From the IMG/VR virus record IMGVR_UViG_2851955134_000009: DNA of 64,000 nt; one strand, 5' to 3'. The notes beneath the pieces were generated by a model. The model was not told the DNA's origin. It was given only the letters and a program-made list of their open reading frames with translations, and made no database searches. Below, one piece after another: positions 5,119-13,610 of this stretch. A program made the position numbers and the translations under genes. Numbering within the stretch: position 1 is the stretch's first letter; each line of letters opens with the position of its first letter. This DNA comes from a virus (lineage: Duplodnaviria > Heunggongvirae > Uroviricota > Caudoviricetes).

Positions 5119-5352
5119 ATGCGTAATATTGAAACCCTCACGACTAAAACCGGACCGGATGACGCAGGGCTTAATATTTTACTGACAGAGGCTCGTCTGG
5201 AAGAACGCCGGGCAAGGGCTGAAGCAATGGCTGCTCGCCTTGATAGCCTGGCGTGTCATATCTCATCCCACCAGCTAAACCACGTGGAAGCGGCAGAACT
5301 GCTGCGCGTGACTGCTGAAGCAATCCAGAACGAAGCGCAGGAGATCCACTAA
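5119..5352 (+). CDS. Hypothetical protein
   Basis: ATG at 5119 with AGGAG RBS (track start at 5113 is TTG); 77 aa. Confidence 0.5.
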   Translation: MRNIETLTTKTGPDDAGLNILLTEARLEERRARAEAMAARLDSLACHISSHQLNHVEAAELLRVTAEAIQNEAQEIH

Positions 5353-5579
5353 TGGCTGATGCAATGGATCTCGTACAGCAGCGCGTTGAAGAAGAACGCC
5401 AGCGCCATATCCGTGCAGCCCGTGCCAAATCACCGGGCGTGTCACGCGTACTTTGCATTGAATGTGAAGCGCCAATTCCGCCAGCACGACGCCGCGCCAT
5501 TCCGGGAGTGCAGCTTTGCATTACCTGTCAGGAAATCGCAGAACTGAAAGGCAAACATTACAACGGAGGTGCTGTATGA
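5352..5579 (+). CDS. TraR/DksA-family C4 zinc-finger protein
   Basis: 75 aa with CxxC-x17-CxxC (CIECEAP...CITCQEI) at C-terminus; start overlaps upstream stop (TAATG). Confidence 0.7.
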   Translation: MADAMDLVQQRVEEERQRHIRAARAKSPGVSRVLCIECEAPIPPARRRAIPGVQLCITCQEIAELKGKHYNGGAV

Positions 5580-6433
5580 GCACCATCCTGAAATGGGCGG
5601 GAAATAAAACCGCCATTATGCCAGAACTGAAAAAATACCTTCCTGCTGGCCCGCGACTGGTTGAACCTTTCGCGGGTTCCTGTGCTGTGATGATGGAAAC
5701 GGATTATCCCAGCTATCTGGTTGCGGATATTAATCCTGATTTAATCAACCTCTATAAAAAGGTTGCCGCTGATTGTGAATCGTTTATATCTCGCGCCAGA
5801 GTTTTATTTGAGATCGCAAACAGGGAGGTGGCTTATTACAACATAAGGCAGGAGTTTAACTGCTCAACTGAAATTACTGATTTCATGAAAGCGGTATATT
5901 TCCTGTATCTCAATCGTCACGGTTACCGTGGTTTATGTCGCTATAACAAGAGCGGGCATTTCAACATTCCCTACGGTAATTATAAAAATCCGTATTTCCC
6001 TGAAAAAGAACTTCGCACATTTGCAGAAAAAGCCCAGCGAGCAACGTTTATCTGCGCCAGCTTTGATGAAACGCTGGCGATGTTGAAGGCGGGAGATGTG
6101 GTGTATTGCGATCCGCCATATGACGGTACGTTTTCCGGCTATCACACTGATGGTTTCACTGAAGATGACCAGTATCACCTGGCATCCGTTCTTGAACATC
6201 GGTCATCAGAAGGACATCCGGTCATTGTTTCTAACAGTGACACATCCCTGATCCGTTCGCTGTATCGCAATTTTACTCACCACTATATCAAGGTAAAACG
6301 CAGCATCGGTGTGGCAGCTGGCGAGGGTAAATCAGCAACAGAAATCATTGCTGTTTCCGGGCCGCGCTGCTGGATGGGATTTGATTATTCGCGTGGCGTG
6401 GATAGTTCTGCCGTGTACGGAGTACGTGCATGA
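5576..6433 (+). CDS. dam: DNA N6-adenine methyltransferase (Dam family, orphan)
   Basis: ILKWAGNK N-terminal motif and DPPY catalytic motif ([10 protein letters not shown]); GGAGG RBS; no adjacent restriction gene. Confidence 0.85.
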
Positions 6434-8844
6434 GTCATGCCGATATGAACAACTGCTGCGGCTTTAACGAGGCTGCCGCAGCATTCTCATGGAACAGCCC
6501 GAAAAAGGCCATTAACCCTTATCTGGACCCGGCGGAAGTTGCGCCGGTTTCTACGCTTTCAAACCTGATCACTCTGTACGCTGCCGATAACGAGCAGGAA
6601 CAGTTGCGCCGCGAGGCACTGAGTGATCAGGTCTGGGAGCGTTATTTCTTTAATGAATCACGTGATCCTGTCCAGCGCGAAATGGAGCAGGATAAGCTCA
6701 TTAGCCGGGCAAAGCTGGCGCATGAGCAGCAGCGTTTTAATTCAGACATGGTCATTCTGGCGGACGTCAACGCCCAGCCTTCCCATATCAGCAAGCCGCT
6801 GATGCAACGTATTGAATACTTCAGCAGCCTGGGCAGGCCAAAGGCTTATTCCCGCTATTTACGTGAGACGATTAAGCCATGTCTGGAACGACTGGAGCAT
6901 GTACGCGACAGTCAGCTATCTGCATCTTTTCGCTTTATGGCAAGCAATGAAGGGCTGGACGGCCTGCTGATCCTGCCTGAAATGAGTCAGGATCAGGTGA
7001 AACGCCTGTCCACCCTGGTAGCTGCGCATATGAGTATGTGCCTTGATGCAGCTTGTGGTGATTTGTATGCCACCGATGACGTTAAGCCAGAAGAAATCCG
7101 CAAGACATGGGAAAAGGTGGCAGCGGAAACCCTGCGTCTGGATGTCATCCCACCTGCGTTTGAGCAACTCCGTCGGAAAAGAAACCGCCGTAAACCCGTG
7201 CCCTATGAACTCATTCCGGGTTCGCTGGCGCGTATGTTGTGCGCCGACTGGTGGTATCGGAAATTATGGAAGATGCGTTGCGAATGGCGGGAAGAGCAGT
7301 TGCGCGCTGTTTGCCTGGTCAGCAAAAAAGCATCTCCTTATGTCAGCTATGAAGCCGTGATGCATAAACGTGAGCAGCGCCGTAAGTCGCTGGAGTTTTT
7401 CCGTTCTCATGAACTGGTGAACGAAGACGGCGACACGCTGGACATGGAGGATGTGGTAAACGCCAGCAGCAGCAACCCTGCGCATCGCCGCAATGAGATG
7501 ATGGCCTGTGTTAAAGGTCTGGAGCTTATCGCGGAAATGCGCGGTGACTGCGCCGTTTTCTACACTATCACCTGTCCGTCGCGTTTCCATTCCACGCTAA
7601 ATAACGGCAGACCAAACCCGACCTGGACAAACGCGACGGTAAGACAAAGCAGCGATTATCTGGTCGGCATGTTTGCTGCATTTCGTAAGGCGATGCACAA
7701 AGCCGGGTTGCGCTGGTATGGCGTGCGGGTGGCTGAGCCGCATCATGATGGCACAGTTCACTGGCACCTGTTGTGTTTCATGCGCAAAAAAGACCGCCGT
7801 GCCATCACTGCATTACTGCGTAAGTTTGCCATCCGTGAAGACCGCGAGGAGCTGGGCAATAACACTGGGCCGCGCTTTAAGTCTGAGTTGATTAACCCGC
7901 GCAAAGGAACGCCGACAAGCTACATCGCGAAATATATCAGTAAGAACATTGACGGTCGTGGTCTGGCTGGCGAGATCAGCAAGGAAACGGGTAAATCTCT
8001 GCGTGATAACGCTGAATACGTGAATGCCTGGGCGTCTCTGCATCGTGTTCAGCAATTCCGCTTCTTTGGTATTCCGGGGCGTCAGGCTTACCGTGAACTT
8101 CGCTTGCTGGCTGGTCAGGCGGCAAGGCAACAGGGTGACAAAAAAGCAGGTGCGCCGGTACTGGATAACCCGCGTCTTGATGCCATTCTGGCTGCTGCTG
8201 ATGCTGGTTGTTTTGCCACCTACATCATGAAGCAGGGCGGCGTACTGGTTCCCCGTAAATATCACCTCATCAGAACCGCTTATGAAATCAACGAAGAGCC
8301 GACCGCCTATGGCGATCACGGCATTCGTATTTATGGCATCTGGTCACCCATTGCAGAGGGCAAGATCTGCACTCATGCAGTGAAGTGGAAAATGGTTCGT
8401 AAAGCCGTTGACGTTCAGGAGGCGGCAGCCGACCAGGGCGCTTGCGCCCCTTGGACTCGTGGCAATAACTGTCCCCTTGCTGAAAATTTGAACCAACAAG
8501 GGAAAGACAAATCAGCTGATGGGGATACCAGGACGGACATTACCCGCATGGATGACAAGGAGTTGCACGATTACCTGCACAGTATGAGCAAAAAAGAGCG
8601 CCGGGAACTGGCTGCAAGGTTACGCCTGGTGAAACCGAAACGGCGTAAAGACTACAAACAGCGAATTACAGACCATCAGCGACAGCAGCTCGTCTATGAA
8701 CTGAAGTCCAGAGGATTTAATGGCAGCGAGAAAGAGGTCGATTTACTCCTTCGCGGCGGCAGTATTCCGTCAGGAGCAGGCCTGCGTATCTTCTATCGGA
8801 ACCAGCGTTTGCAGGAAGATGATAAGTGGCGAAACCTGTATTAA
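6430..8844 (+). CDS. A: Replication initiation endonuclease (P2 gpA family, rolling-circle)
   Basis: 804 aa; active-site tyrosine region [15 protein letters not shown]; ATGA overlap with dam. Confidence 0.85.
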
Positions 8845-9589: not shown

Positions 9590-10015
9590 CTACTTAATTG
9601 AGTCCAGTAACAAGTTACAGTTACTCTCATTGTAGAGAGAACGAGCAATTAGTGTTACCTGCTTTCCATTCATTCCCGGCTTATCCCATAACACAGCTTC
9701 TTGCGACGCCACAAATTCAGCATAATCAATTATGCGTTGTTCGTGATCTGGTTCCTCATAGCCAAAGTATGAGAGCGCATCGTTGTAAGCGTGGTAAGCT
9801 GCTTTCTGTAATATCTTGATATCGGCTGTAGGTACTTGCTCCGTGTAGCTAGGATCTAATTGTGTGCTACTGCCATAGAATGCACATGAAAGGTAAGATA
9901 TTGATTTCTGTTGAGCTTTAGTTCCTTTCTCATAGTTTTTAGCTGTTACCGCCTGAACAGGGACGCTAACAAAGCTTGCAACCAGAATTAAAATTAATAC
10001 GTAAAAGCTTTTCAT
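9590..10015 (-). CDS. Secreted protein of unknown function (cargo)
   Basis: 141 aa with N-terminal signal peptide (MKSFYVLILILVASFVSVPVQA); low GC; GAGGT RBS. Confidence 0.6.
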   Translation of the reverse strand: MKSFYVLILILVASFVSVPVQAVTAKNYEKGTKAQQKSISYLSCAFYGSSTQLDPSYTEQVPTADIKILQKAAYHAYNDALSYFGYEEPDHEQRIIDYAEFVASQEAVLWDKPGMNGKQVTLIARSLYNESNCNLLLDSIK

Positions 10016-10288: not shown

Positions 10289-10312
10289 GCCCGCCAGAAC
10301 TGGCGGGCTTTT
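10289..10312 (+). terminator. Rho-independent terminator
   Basis: GCCCGCC-AGAACT-GGCGGGC hairpin followed by TTTT. Confidence 0.6.
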
Positions 10313-10357
10313 GCGTAGATCATGCTCCTGCATGAAAACCACTACATAAAGCGGGCA

Positions 10358-10376
10358 GGCGTGGCGGGGATACGAG
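10358..10376. other. Candidate cos (cohesive end) site of the P2-like phage
   Basis: GGCGTGGCGGGGA matches the start of the P2/186 19-nt cos sequence as recalled (GGCG[A/T]GGCGGGGAAAGCA.); lies between replication and head genes as expected. Confidence 0.4.
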
Positions 10377-10462
10377 CGCGCGTATTAGGTTTTATTTGAG
10401 AGCTTGTTAAATATGATGTTTCACAATTAGAATTGTCCGTAAATCATTCTGTTGGAGGCATT

Positions 10463-10645
10463 ATGGAATACTTAAGCGAAATCATTAGTTTTTTGGCAGG
10501 GGCGGGTATCAGTTGGGCTATTACTTTCAATGTGTATAATTACAAAGTAAAGCAAATTTGTATGAACCAAAGTTCTCCCATTCAAAATGGAAATACAGTG
10601 ACAAACGGAAGCATTGTCGGTAGAGATCAGACTAATTCTCACTAA
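10463..10645 (+). CDS. Small membrane protein, first gene of candidate cassette
   Basis: 60 aa from ATG with GGAGG RBS; one TM helix (IISFLAGAGISWAITF); C-terminal NGSIVGRDQTN motif repeated in the next ORF. Confidence 0.5.
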   Translation: MEYLSEIISFLAGAGISWAITFNVYNYKVKQICMNQSSPIQNGNTVTNGSIVGRDQTNSH

Positions 10646-10658
10646 GGGAGTGATTGGT

Positions 10659-11225
10659 GTGTTTAGTAAACAGGAGCAATCAGGTAATAGAGTAAGAAAT
10701 GGGAGTATTGTTGGAGGGAGTCAAACAAACCACATTACCAATATAGTTCGTAGTAGTAATCGAACTTTAGAGCGTTTGTACCAAAAGTTCTCTCAAGAAG
10801 ATGGAACTATGGGGGGGCAGGATTTTTGTGATAAGTTAAAGCACTATTTAGCCTCGGATACCAATCCAGATATAAGAGATTTAGCTACAAAGCTAACTGA
10901 TAGTGATAGAACTGAATTAATTTACTTTGCAACTGCTCTTAAAGAGCAAGCCCTCAAGGCGATAATGAAGTGCCAATCTTCCAAAACCGCACAAGAAATA
11001 TATGCGTTTATTCTTGATAAAATTCATGCTGATTTTATGCTCAAAATTACACCTCTTATTCAGAAGGATGAGGACCGAGTAATTGTTGATGAAAAAATTT
11101 CATTGGTATTAGAAAATATTAGTGAAATGTTGGGCGATAATTTGTTAAACTTATCCGAAAAGGATCTTTTGGGACTGTTGTATTTTTTAGGCGGAAATTG
11201 TTATATAAGGTGGGATAAATGTTAG
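10659..11225 (+). CDS. Hypothetical protein, candidate cassette component
   Basis: About 188 aa from GTG at 10659 (GTG at 10650 also possible); low GC; N-terminal NGSIVGGSQTN repeat; ends overlapping next start. Confidence 0.55.
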   Translation: MFSKQEQSGNRVRNGSIVGGSQTNHITNIVRSSNRTLERLYQKFSQEDGTMGGQDFCDKLKHYLASDTNPDIRDLATKLTDSDRTELIYFATALKEQALKAIMKCQSSKTAQEIYAFILDKIHADFMLKITPLIQKDEDRVIVDEKISLVLENISEMLGDNLLNLSEKDLLGLLYFLGGNCYIRWDKC

Positions 11226-11719
11226 TTTATCATCCAGCATATGATGCCTATCATTGTCTATTTAGAATGATGGCAATTATGGAAAATACAAATCGGCTTG
11301 AGATTGATAAGCTTAAAATATTGGATTTTTACATTTTATTTCCTGCGTTATTAAGTGAAGTGAAAATGCCGAGAGAATTTATTAAAATTAAAAAAACAGC
11401 AAAACTACATCATAATGAATATCATGATCCATTGAGTCCAAGGATTATTTTCAAGGAAATGCGTCAAATACAGGATGCAGCACTAAAATGTATGCTTGCG
11501 ACTGGTTATATTGATTCTGATGATTTCAGCAATGGTTTTGTCTCAAGAACAAATAAACAATTACCACTGAACCTAGCCTTAGAAATGGGCGTTTTTTTAG
11601 AGCGCAAAGAACCGTTTTCATCTTTCATTACACAAAAGATGGCTAAATTTGATCTGACTGGACCTGATGGATTGAAGGCTAGAACTAAACTTATGGAGTA
11701 TAGATATGACACTTATTAA
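11219..11719 (+). CDS. Hypothetical protein, candidate cassette component
   Basis: 166 aa; ATG with AAGGTGGG RBS; 7-nt overlap with upstream gene and 14-nt overlap with the ATPase gene. Confidence 0.6.
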   Translation: MLVYHPAYDAYHCLFRMMAIMENTNRLEIDKLKILDFYILFPALLSEVKMPREFIKIKKTAKLHHNEYHDPLSPRIIFKEMRQIQDAALKCMLATGYIDSDDFSNGFVSRTNKQLPLNLALEMGVFLERKEPFSSFITQKMAKFDLTGPDGLKARTKLMEYRYDTY

Positions 11720-13610
11720 GCCTACTCTTATTGTAACCAGATTAACAGTTTTTCAACACGGACATCGTGCATTTGATTGTGAATTCCACAAAGGTGTTAA
11801 CATTATTCGTGGGCGAAATAGTTCTGGTAAAACTACAATAATGGATATGCTGGCATTTTCATTGGGAGCTGAAAATATCAGGTGGAAACCACAGGCTTTG
11901 AAATGCACTAGAACAATCGTTGAAGTGCTTCTCAATAATGAGAAAGCATGCTTTAAACGAGAGATATCTATTGAGCAAATGCGACCTCTTTATATTTATT
12001 GGGGAGCGATGGATAAGGCTTTGAATGCTGGGGAACACGAATGGGATTTATACCCATTCAAGAGAACTGAGAGTAAAATTAGCTTCACCCAAGCTATTTT
12101 CAATGCATTATCAATGCCCTTGGCACAAGGTGCTGGTTCTTCTAATTTGACATTGCATCAGATTTTACGTGTCTTGTATGCAGATCAGCCGTCGTTACAT
12201 AGTCCAATTTTTCGATTTGACAGATTTGATAATGCTCTTACCCGTGAGACGGTAGGTGGATACTTATGTGGTGTTTATAATGATGAGTTGTACAATGCAC
12301 AACTTTCTTTAAGAGATGTTGAGACCGAACTAACAAAGAAAGTTACTGAATTAAAAAGTATCTTTACTGTATTAGGTAGATCTGGACAGGCTCCAGATTT
12401 ACAAGGTATTGATGAGAAAATAAAGCATCTAAATAAATTGAGAGCTATTGAGAATGTAAAACTAACAAATAGAGCTATTATAACTAATGAAGAAGGGGCT
12501 GATTCTGAAAAACGAATGGGTACTATCAGGGAGGAACTCAATGAAGCTAAAAGGAAATTATCTTCCCTAAAAGATAAAATCCAATCTTTGGATTTTGAAA
12601 TTTCAGATTCTGATATGTTTATATCAGAATTAAATGAGCGGCTAAAAAACTTAGAACAGTCTCGAGAAACGCGTGCTATATTTGATAGTATGAATTTTGA
12701 TTTTTGCCCTAGTTGTCTTTCCAAAATAGATAAGGCTCATAATGATCATGTTTGTCATCTATGTAAAGTGGAACAATTAGATGATAAAGCTGAAAATCAG
12801 TTATTAAGAATGAAAAATGAATTAACTCTTCAAATCAAAGAATCTCTTCAATTAATGGATAGAAGAAAAGAAGAGTTGGTAAGATTAAAGCGAGATGTTC
12901 CTTTAGCTGAGAGTGAATTAAAAAGGCTTGAACAGGATTATTTCAAAGAGTCACACTATTGGTCTTCACCGCAAGAGTTAGCTGTAGGTAAAATATATAG
13001 GGAAATTGGACGGCTTGATGAAGAAATAAAAAGAGCTTATGAAGATAAGAAGCTTATTGTTGTTATTAATGAACTTCAAGAGCGTCGCGATGAACTTCAG
13101 GCGGAAAAAAATAGACTTGATGATCTTATTGAACTTTATGAAGAAAAAGAGGAAGTTCTTAAAGATAAAATTTATGCTTCAGTGAGCTCAATAGCACAAG
13201 AGCTTTTACAAGAAGATTTGCCTTTGCAAAAAGAGTTTATGTCTCCTGAAAGTGTGGAGTTTAGTTTTACTGATAATAGCGTTTATGTGAATGGTAGTAA
13301 GAACTTTTCTGAAAGTTCAGCTGTAGTATTAAGGCATATATTCCATTTGGCACTACTTTCAGCAAGTATAGAGAACCACTCAATGCGACTTCCAAGATTT
13401 ATGATGTTAGATGGGATCGACGATGGTGGAATGGAAAAAGAACGGAGTCACAATTTACAGGAAATAATAATTGATGAGTGCTCACGTTATGAACATGATT
13501 ATCAGTTGATATTTGCAACATCTGAAATAAATCCCAAATACAGTGAGAGTGAATATATTGTTGGTGAGTATTATTCGCCAGATAATTATTCATTGAAAAT
13601 AATTGAGTAA
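11706..13610 (+). CDS. SMC/Rad50-like ABC ATPase with long coiled-coil insert and CxxC...CxxC hook-like motif
   Basis: 634 aa; Walker A GRNSSGKTT near N-terminus, about 300-aa K/E-rich coiled coil with CPSC-x10-CHLC, C-terminal Walker-B-like FMMLDGIDD; no TOPRIM or nuclease domain visible. Confidence 0.75.
   Translation: MTLIKPTLIVTRLTVFQHGHRAFDCEFHKGVNIIRGRNSSGKTTIMDMLAFSLGAENIRWKPQALKCTRTIVEVLLNNEKACFKREISIEQMRPLYIYWGAMDKALNAGEHEWDLYPFKRTESKISFTQAIFNALSMPLAQGAGSSNLTLHQILRVLYADQPSLHSPIFRFDRFDNALTRETVGGYLCGVYNDELYNAQLSLRDVETELTKKVTELKSIFTVLGRSGQAPDLQGIDEKIKHLNKLRAIENVKLTNRAIITNEEGADSEKRMGTIREELNEAKRKLSSLKDKIQSLDFEISDSDMFISELNERLKNLEQSRETRAIFDSMNFDFCPSCLSKIDKAHNDHVCHLCKVEQLDDKAENQLLRMKNELTLQIKESLQLMDRRKEELVRLKRDVPLAESELKRLEQDYFKESHYWSSPQELAVGKIYREIGRLDEEIKRAYEDKKLIVVINELQERRDELQAEKNRLDDLIELYEEKEEVLKDKIYASVSSIAQELLQEDLPLQKEFMSPESVEFSFTDNSVYVNGSKNFSESSAVVLRHIFHLALLSASIENHSMRLPRFMMLDGIDDGGMEKERSHNLQEIIIDECSRYEHDYQLIFATSEINPKYSESEYIVGEYYSPDNYSLKIIE

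Follow-up and report, generated by a model that had tools for sequence, protein, structure and literature searches.

The open reading frame (ORF) at positions 11706-13610 of the Caudoviricetes record IMGVR_UViG_2851955134_000009, analysed here as one window of 64,000 nucleotides (nt), is the LmuB gene of a short (type II) Lamassu system of MC5-CTD9 type. Lamassu systems act against phages and plasmids by abortive infection and assemble with the stoichiometry LmuB2:LmuA1:LmuC1. The original prediction, made from the sequence alone, had singled out in the encoded protein a cysteine cluster resembling the zinc hook of Rad50 and non-canonical catalytic motifs of an ATP-binding cassette (ABC) ATPase. 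Both features are real and conserved, yet they are variants of traits already known for the LmuB family, since CxxC copies, a deviant Walker B motif and slow ATP turnover have been published. What the MC5-CTD9-type LmuB family adds is a Cys4 cluster fixed within one chain, an Asn or Gly instead of a Gln at the catalytic position, and the lack of an H-loop histidine. As the best explanation of the whole, to which we assign a probability of roughly 0.7, we propose an LmuB with an in-cis Cys4 zinc apex, a head working as an ATP-engagement switch, and a small protein as the effector.

The 634-residue protein matches the PADLOC LmuB model over its full length (E 1e-42) as well as phrog_1637, and PADLOC, the structural model and Foldseek agree on an LmuB of ~600-650 residues with one head half on either side of an antiparallel coiled coil. 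LmuB was indeed among the families that the original prediction had named for comparison. Type II Lamassu is alternatively called ABC-three component (ABC-3C) system, and the definitions of ABC-3C, MC5 and CTD9 reportedly go back to Krishnan et al. 2020. When 1.84 billion cluster representatives were searched with an LmuB profile, at least 413 matched with E<1e-30, and conservation was read from an alignment of 146 sequences, i.e. the LmuB of the window and 145 full-length cluster representatives of 27-52% identity; residue counts below refer to this alignment. Close homologues, of 53-99% identity, keep all four cysteines and the entire LDGIDDGGMEK stretch. Searched as a whole against PDB sequences, both as single sequence and as profile, LmuB gave matches only at the Walker A region of Rad50, SMC and LmuB proteins, and a profile of its C-terminal head half found no ABC ATPase there. 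This half is too divergent for a residue-level alignment of Walker B or H-loop to solved LmuB or Rad50.

Structural modelling links the protein to LmuB where sequence comparison ends. A first AlphaFold run with 23 close homologues (predicted local distance difference test, pLDDT, 70 overall and 44-55 at the apex) was superseded by a second run of the monomer with 74 diverse sequences of 29-52% identity, which reached a pLDDT of 89.9 and a predicted template modelling score (pTM) of 0.70. In this model an antiparallel coiled coil splits the ABC head of LmuB, with helices 193-224, 232-254 and 268-328 in the N-terminal arm, 359-417 and 422-502 in the C-terminal arm, and residues 329-358 as apex. 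The cysteines are located between the long helical arms, hence at the apex of the coiled coil, a point for which the original prediction had suggested an AlphaFold model. Among PDB structures compared by Foldseek, solved LmuB chains rank first (Salmonella 9hqu_A with E 1e-19, then 9hqx, 9uxh, 9nyg and 9ux7; TM-scores of 0.46-0.53 for 9hqx, 9uxh and 9nyg), and Rad50, SMC and JetC rank below them. Like Salmonella enterica LmuACB (9hqu/9hqx) and Vibrio cholerae DdmC (9nyg, 9uxh), the protein combines ~630 residues, a split ABC head and a short, kinked antiparallel coiled coil. It resembles Salmonella LmuB in the positions of the Walker A lysine (K42 versus K40), of the signature serine (S537 versus S536) and of the coiled-coil break, the interruptions at 255-267 and 418-421 corresponding to folding point FP1 (aa 266-276 and 416-432). 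Despite these similarities, identity to the Salmonella and Vibrio proteins is only 12-15%, without a sequence-level match in the C-terminal head half. Two sets of residues, D301/F305 on the N-terminal arm (nt 12606-12620, aa 301-305) and Q376/E379/S380 on the C-terminal arm (nt 12831-12845, aa 376-380), are at least 90% conserved; as each is ~30 residues away from the Cys4 apex, the two should be opposite one another in the hairpin and may form a partner-binding or hinge patch. In Salmonella LmuB, the second folding point comprises aa 321-335 and 379-383.

In the translated protein, CPSC occupies aa 334-337 (nt 12705-12716) and CHLC aa 350-353 (nt 12753-12764), in the middle of the coiled coil where Rad50 carries its zinc hook, exactly as had been predicted; only the spacer had been miscounted, as it holds 12 residues (LSKIDKAHNDHV) and not ten. 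When the protein was shuffled, a CxxC-x8-20-CxxC arrangement arose in 31 of 200,000 trials; the pattern is highly non-random, beyond chance. Nor do homologues lose the cysteines, a possibility that had been raised against the prediction: C334, P335, C337 and C350 are present in 146/146 sequences and C353 in 144/146, in an alignment reaching down to 27% identity, and even an Ignavibacteria homologue carries CPNC334 and CFLC350 at the positions found in the window. Across the alignment the two CxxC elements are separated by 11-16 residues, mostly 11-13, with a single outlier of 20. The first half, C-P-x-C with its invariant proline, matches the hook motif of Rad50/SbcC, with which the protein also shares the apical location on the antiparallel coiled coil of an ABC ATPase; in a published phylogeny, Lamassu descends from SbcC. 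The Rad50 chain, however, has a single CxxC and shares its zinc with a second chain, whereas the LmuB of the window has a second invariant CxxC in cis, 11-16 residues later. In the model, single β-bridge residues (333/340 and 349/356) flank each CxxC, as expected of two zinc knuckles, at an apex pLDDT of 70-80. Four cysteines per chain speak for a zinc ribbon formed in cis rather than for an inter-chain hook of Rad50 style, judging by the standard spacing, the β-bridges of the monomer model and the hook-free dimerisation known in the LmuB family. A comparable element is found in coiled-coil proteins of COG1579 type with a C4 zinc ribbon (Msmeg_4306, PDB 5y05), in which a long helix runs into a CxxC zinc-ribbon motif; these proteins have no ABC head, though, and their ribbon follows the coiled-coil hairpin and does not cap it as in LmuB. 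The profile hit to Msmeg_4306 is weak (E 0.0012, residues 191-346) and driven largely by coiled-coil composition, so homology was rejected and only the analogy retained. Two LmuB homologues are named 'predicted nucleic acid-binding Zn-ribbon protein' by JGI.

In the head, the residues for ATP binding and head engagement, i.e. the Walker A lysine, Q-loop glutamine, signature serine and Walker B aspartate, are conserved throughout the alignment, whereas the catalytic glutamate and the H-loop histidine are, by the same alignment, absent across the whole LmuB family sampled. The translation bears out FMMLDGIDDGG, with Asp-Gly for the usual Asp-Glu, and position +1 after D569 is Asn in 93, Gly in 28, Thr in 9, Ser in 7, Asp in 4 and Ala in 3 of the 146 sequences, but never Glu or Gln. 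Acidic residues follow further downstream: position +3 is Glu in 139, Asp in 5 (the window among them) and Asn in 2 of 146, and position +4 is Asp in 125/146. The missing H-loop histidine was likewise correctly noted. The corresponding strand, Q-I-I-F-T-T-S in the family and QLIFATS in the window, ends on Ser606; position 606 is Ser in 118 and Ala in 16 sequences and never His, and any histidine within 604-616 occurs in only 6/146. H582 is kept in no more than 63/146, and position 599, Tyr in the window and His in 104/146, lies at the start of the strand; neither nearby histidine is in the H-loop position. Rad50 has the canonical Asp-Glu and an H-loop histidine at the places of Asp-Gly and Ser606. 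Retained binding residues without catalytic Glu or His fit an ATP-binding or engagement switch, in line with the original suggestion of a sensor or clamp rather than a motor. By analogy with published LmuB proteins, the ATPase of the window would be slow. Within the family, the clade of the window is a minority variant: it reads D-G-I-D-D-G-G...A-T-S-E (nt 13398-13526), the family consensus being D-N-I-E-D-K-G...T-T-S-M. The GIDD form is found in only 3/146 cluster representatives, and Tyr599 differs together with other head positions. These joint changes may mean that acidic residues near the active site were rearranged in compensation.

The candidate effector is encoded at the other end of the operon. 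LmuA-like proteins usually carry an N-terminal effector domain, such as a nuclease, Sir2, protease or lipase domain. Here the C-terminal docking domain of LmuA is present as CTD9 (aa 89-200 of a 203-residue ORF, for which PGAP sets the start at the GTG at 10659), and the preceding N-terminus carries the motif SGNRVRNGSIVGGSQTN; its ~75 residues have no match in Pfam, PADLOC or NCBIfam, and no enzymatic effector domain was found there. In 111 CTD9 homologues, the most distant at 26% identity and some from Ignavibacteria and Bacteroidota, CTD9 is the sole Pfam domain on record (111/111), and their length is 117-208 residues (170-208 in 110 of them). Directly upstream lies a small ORF, MEYLSEIISFLAGAGISWAITF...NGSIVGRDQTNSH, which PGAP leaves without annotation and which matches phrog_17975 (E 5e-9). 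Homologues of 51-68 residues are located 0-15 nt 5' of the CTD9 gene in 27/27 loci from Proteobacteria, Ignavibacteria and Bacteroidota. Compared with an Erwinia locus, the proportions of nonsynonymous and synonymous differences (pN and pS) in this ORF are 0.17 and 0.59, with dN/dS ~0.17, similar to MC5. Its helix has a Kyte-Doolittle 19-residue maximum of 1.1-1.9, which is borderline for a membrane span, and is followed by a positively charged linker. The CTD9 protein has at its N-terminus a second copy of the tail motif of the small protein, Q-x-x-N-x-x-G-G-D-h-x-G-G-D. In the window both copies (10595-10640 and 10674-10727) read NGSIVG[RG]xQTN; elsewhere (loci L003, L006-L027 and L033-L035) the form is G-G-D-h-x-G-G-D, like two pentapeptide repeats. 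The copies co-vary between clades, with an identity of 0.51 within a locus versus 0.32 across loci (hand-extracted segments, no phylogenetic control), which suggests homotypic contact or gene conversion. That the two ORFs form one frameshifted or recoded gene was considered and rejected: each has its own start and their frame offset is 0, 1 or 2 depending on the locus, hence they are separate genes. With its hydrophobic helix, the small protein is a candidate fourth component and a possible membrane effector; since the CTD9 adaptor has no enzymatic domain, this small protein is the likeliest candidate for the effector of the system.

How the cysteines and the head are used may be read otherwise. 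The C-P-x-C at the apex has the same form as the Rad50/SbcC hook, and in the solved LmuB structures of Salmonella and Bacillus, with one CxxC per chain (CQYC in Bacillus), the hooks of both chains are juxtaposed; moreover, the Lamassu survey of Haudiquet et al. describes short LmuB with zero, one or two CxxC copies, catalogues clades with two and counts these as 'two copies' of the zinc hook (main text of PMC12663957). The LmuB of the window could then be a doubled inter-chain hook, where each Zn2+ is held by one CxxC from each chain and two bridges join the dimer, i.e. the metal-mediated dimerisation originally proposed. We consider this unlikely: four cysteines per chain with a spacer of this length are the standard in-cis zinc-ribbon pattern, the β-bridges already flank both CxxC in a model that has no partner chain, and Vibrio LmuB, which has no CxxC at all, dimerises and forms the same complex (PMC12663957), so metal is unnecessary for dimerisation of LmuB. 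Hence the hook-like position and the C-P-x-C of the original proposal stand, while dimerisation through the metal is doubtful; in the in-cis zinc ribbon that we prefer, the metal may fold the apex rather than join two chains. The deviant head, in turn, might belong to a normally active hydrolase, a working motor or clamp-loader in which a carboxylate at +3 (D572 in the window) or D573 has taken over catalysis. The strong conservation of acidic residues at +3 and +4 speaks for it, and so do two studies in which LmuB complexes hydrolyse ATP despite a deviant Walker B, at a 'moderate rate' in Vibrio and Bacillus. On the other hand, Asn or Gly at +1 leaves no carboxylate at the canonical site, the H-loop histidine as second catalytic element is missing as well, structural support for a +3 residue near the γ-phosphate is lacking, and Salmonella LmuACB turns over ATP at ~1/min and only with DNA (bioRxiv 10.1101/2025.03.14.643221); a full hydrolase is thus rather improbable, and an engagement switch remains our preferred reading of the head.

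A decayed Lamassu remnant that has lost its effector and keeps its motifs as functionless relics is an altogether different explanation. It would account for the CTD9 protein without enzymatic domain and for the rarity in E. coli (3/5426 complete genomes), and a short-Lamassu clade that 'seemingly lost the effector domain' has been described in the main text of PMC12663957. However, 25/27 loci from several phyla have an intact gene set including full-length LmuB, pN is far below pS in all four genes (dN/dS 0.12-0.17 where calculable), and the functional motifs are invariant in a family of at least 413 cluster representatives, making decay very improbable. In the two other loci LmuB appears disrupted (L034) or shortened to 516 residues (L035). 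The former, from Mucilaginibacter (5120-6993), seems to have LmuB split into three called genes (58, 297 and 212 aa) next to an intact small ORF, CTD9 gene and MC5 gene, and is probably a decaying copy. Several points nevertheless weigh against our overall explanation. The apex of the LmuB model has a pLDDT of only 70-80, and a monomer model cannot tell coordination in cis from a domain-swapped arrangement between chains. For H-loop and D-loop, the assignment is based on motif order and on the position of secondary structure, the C-terminal half being unalignable, and the conserved Glu/Asp at Walker B +3 could be a relocated catalytic base that partially substitutes for the glutamate. No PADLOC LmuA model matches the CTD9 protein, and one P4-hotspot Lamassu variant that lacks a known effector was not protective when assayed in a published panel.

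We thus propose the following mechanism for this LmuB with its in-cis zinc apex and switch-like head. The four cysteines of one chain would bind one Zn2+ as a small zinc ribbon, whose first knuckle, C-P-x-C, would stem from the ancestral Rad50/SbcC hook and whose second CxxC would replace, in cis, the partner chain. The metal site would rigidify the apex as a platform for the binding of MC5 and CTD9 and for the LmuB-LmuB contact; in solved Lamassu complexes the apex is the meeting point of two LmuB chains and the docking site of LmuC and the LmuA C-terminal domain. The head would be an ATP-dependent switch with slow or no hydrolysis, and upon binding of DNA ends produced by infection LmuB would release adaptor and effector. 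Defence by Salmonella LmuACB depends on the zinc hook, on ATP binding and on head engagement, the last being represented by mutant S536R, and the LmuA C-terminal domain and LmuC lie beside the hook (bioRxiv 10.1101/2025.03.14.643221). More tentatively, at somewhat less than even odds, all components can be joined in one picture: MC5-CTD9 Lamassu would be a four-gene, non-enzymatic, split-effector system, the effector of which is the overlooked 51-68-residue protein with its one hydrophobic, glycine-zipper-like helix. The pentapeptide-like (G-G-D-h-x)x2 motif would tether this protein to the CTD9 adaptor, the Cys4-tipped, hydrolysis-impaired LmuB would sense DNA ends and release the adaptor, and the freed adaptor would oligomerise and thereby cluster the helices into a membrane lesion.

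Compared with known systems, the family shares with short Lamassu the deviant Walker B, the gene order LmuA-like, middle component, LmuB, and the carriage on a mobile element. For Walker B, the main text of PMC12663957 gives hhhhD[Q/S/T/E] in short and hhhhDD in long LmuB; since Gly and Asn fall outside this consensus, D-G of the window and D-N of the family extend it, and the short Lamassu compared have Gln at +1. The number of CxxC per chain is two here, one in Salmonella and Bacillus LmuB and none in Vibrio LmuB, and the partners are MC5 and CTD9 instead of MC3 and CTD7 or CTD12, with an LmuA-like protein free of nuclease or other enzymatic domains. Unlike Rad50/SbcC with their nuclease partner Mre11/SbcD, LmuB of the window has MC5, CTD9 and phage portal genes as neighbours and no SbcD gene nearby. 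With its short LmuB, its intact LmuC and an LmuA of which only the C-terminal domain is left, the MC5-CTD9 family recalls Clade O of short Lamassu (Haudiquet et al., PNAS 2025, PMC12663957) and is probably this published 'effector-less' clade. The main text of that survey makes no mention of a D-G/N Walker B, a missing H-loop histidine or an upstream small gene. That the 'Lamassu-var' described in the Domainator paper (CP038295) is the same system was considered and rejected, as it is an MC2-type operon of different genes. That MC2-type ABC-3C operon (NZ_CP038295, 4115500-4121500, in a P4-like satellite hotspot) comprises a 205-residue ABC-3C protein without obvious effector domain and an upstream hypothetical gene of 138 aa, a hint that effectors may be split or missing in further ABC-3C families as well.

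Features of the Lamassu operon and its LmuB in the window (aa, amino acid positions of LmuB unless a length is given)
Feature	Position (nt)	Strand	Basis or conservation
Sigma-70-like promoter candidate TTGTTA-18-TAGAAT, upstream of operon	10404..10433	+	consensus scan only
Small ORF, 60 aa, N-terminal hydrophobic Gly-rich helix, basic linker, C-terminal NGSIVGRDQTN tail	10463..10645	+	GGAGG upstream of ATG
LmuA-like adaptor, 188 aa, CTD9 in C-terminal ~110 residues	10659..11225	+	Pfam CTD9 (PF20285) E 2.5e-30; phrog_13193
Middle component MC5 (LmuC equivalent), 166 aa	11219..11719	+	Pfam MC5 (PF20291) E 1.6e-57; phrog_13252
LmuB, SMC/Rad50-like ABC ATPase, 634 aa	11706..13610	+	PADLOC LmuB E 1e-42; Foldseek; phrog_1637
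Walker A GRNSSGKT, aa 36-43	11811..11834	+	G41 and K42 in 145/146 (one gap)
Q161, probable Q-loop Gln (YADQPS)	12186..12188	+	146/146; assignment from ABC ATPase motif order
N-terminal coiled-coil arm, aa 193-328, break aa 255-267	12282..12689	+	DSSP on AlphaFold model
Apex Cys4 motif CPSC-x12-CHLC, aa 334-353, predicted zinc ribbon or double zinc hook	12705..12764	+	translation, conservation, model
C-terminal coiled-coil arm, aa 359-502, break aa 418-421	12780..13211	+	DSSP on AlphaFold model
Signature-motif equivalent SESSA, aa 535-539, N-terminus of helix 536-556	13308..13322	+	S537 in 146/146
Deviant Walker B and D-loop region FMMLD-GIDDGG, aa 565-575	13398..13430	+	D569 invariant; strand 565-568 in model
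H-loop strand QLIFATSE, aa 600-607, Ser606 at usual His site	13503..13526	+	strand 600-605 in model; alignment

The operon sits in the gpA-portal (gpA-gpQ) defence hotspot of a P2-like prophage, the region where P2-like phages concentrate their defence systems (PMC13586616). It stands out as an island of 36% GC content between gpA and the portal gene, within a prophage of 52-58% GC. In the identical locus of E. coli PK8568, RefSeq names the genes 'ABC-three component system protein', 'middle component 5' and 'ATP-binding protein', and the locus is flanked by a P2-type replication endonuclease on one side and portal and terminase genes on the other. Between the LmuA-like and LmuB genes, the MC5 gene encodes the small middle component; its reading frame overlaps both neighbours, and it gives a weak PADLOC LmuC match (E 8.7e-4). 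Evidence for the promoter candidate is weak because such sites are not more numerous in the region than expected from shuffled sequence. In the same hotspot, on the opposite strand between a DinI-like gene and the operon (9590-10015, minus strand), a 141-residue ORF whose N-terminal segment resembles a signal peptide (MKSFYVLILILVASFVSVPVQA) matches phrog_7437, a family of unknown function. At 10289-10395 there is a GC-rich hairpin with a T-run after it (GGCCCGCCAGAACTGGCGGGCTTTTG), which together with ~95 nt flanks is 83-96% identical in the hits listed. More than 1200 E. coli genomes have this element, as do P2-like phages including Fels-2; it is the conserved border on the left side of the variable hotspot for defence genes.

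In summary, the original interpretation was broadly right, with the caveats that metal-mediated dimerisation is doubtful and that slow ATP turnover is taken over from related proteins. The flagged features identify the gene as a Lamassu sensor in a P2 prophage hotspot, which is of value for annotation and unsurprising. Beyond this, a Cys4 apex that is invariant within the chain across the whole family is a natural experiment on whether a zinc hook serves dimerisation or the folding of the apex and the docking of partners. Likewise, an LmuB head that keeps its binding residues without the catalytic Glu, without even the usual Gln in its place, and without the H-loop His would be well suited for telling ATP engagement apart from hydrolysis in Lamassu activation, an open question according to the Salmonella study (bioRxiv 10.1101/2025.03.14.643221). 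More novel than the Cys4 finding, and of somewhat higher interest, is the conserved small gene beside enzyme-less CTD9 proteins, which could explain killing or growth arrest by 'effector-less' Lamassu systems.

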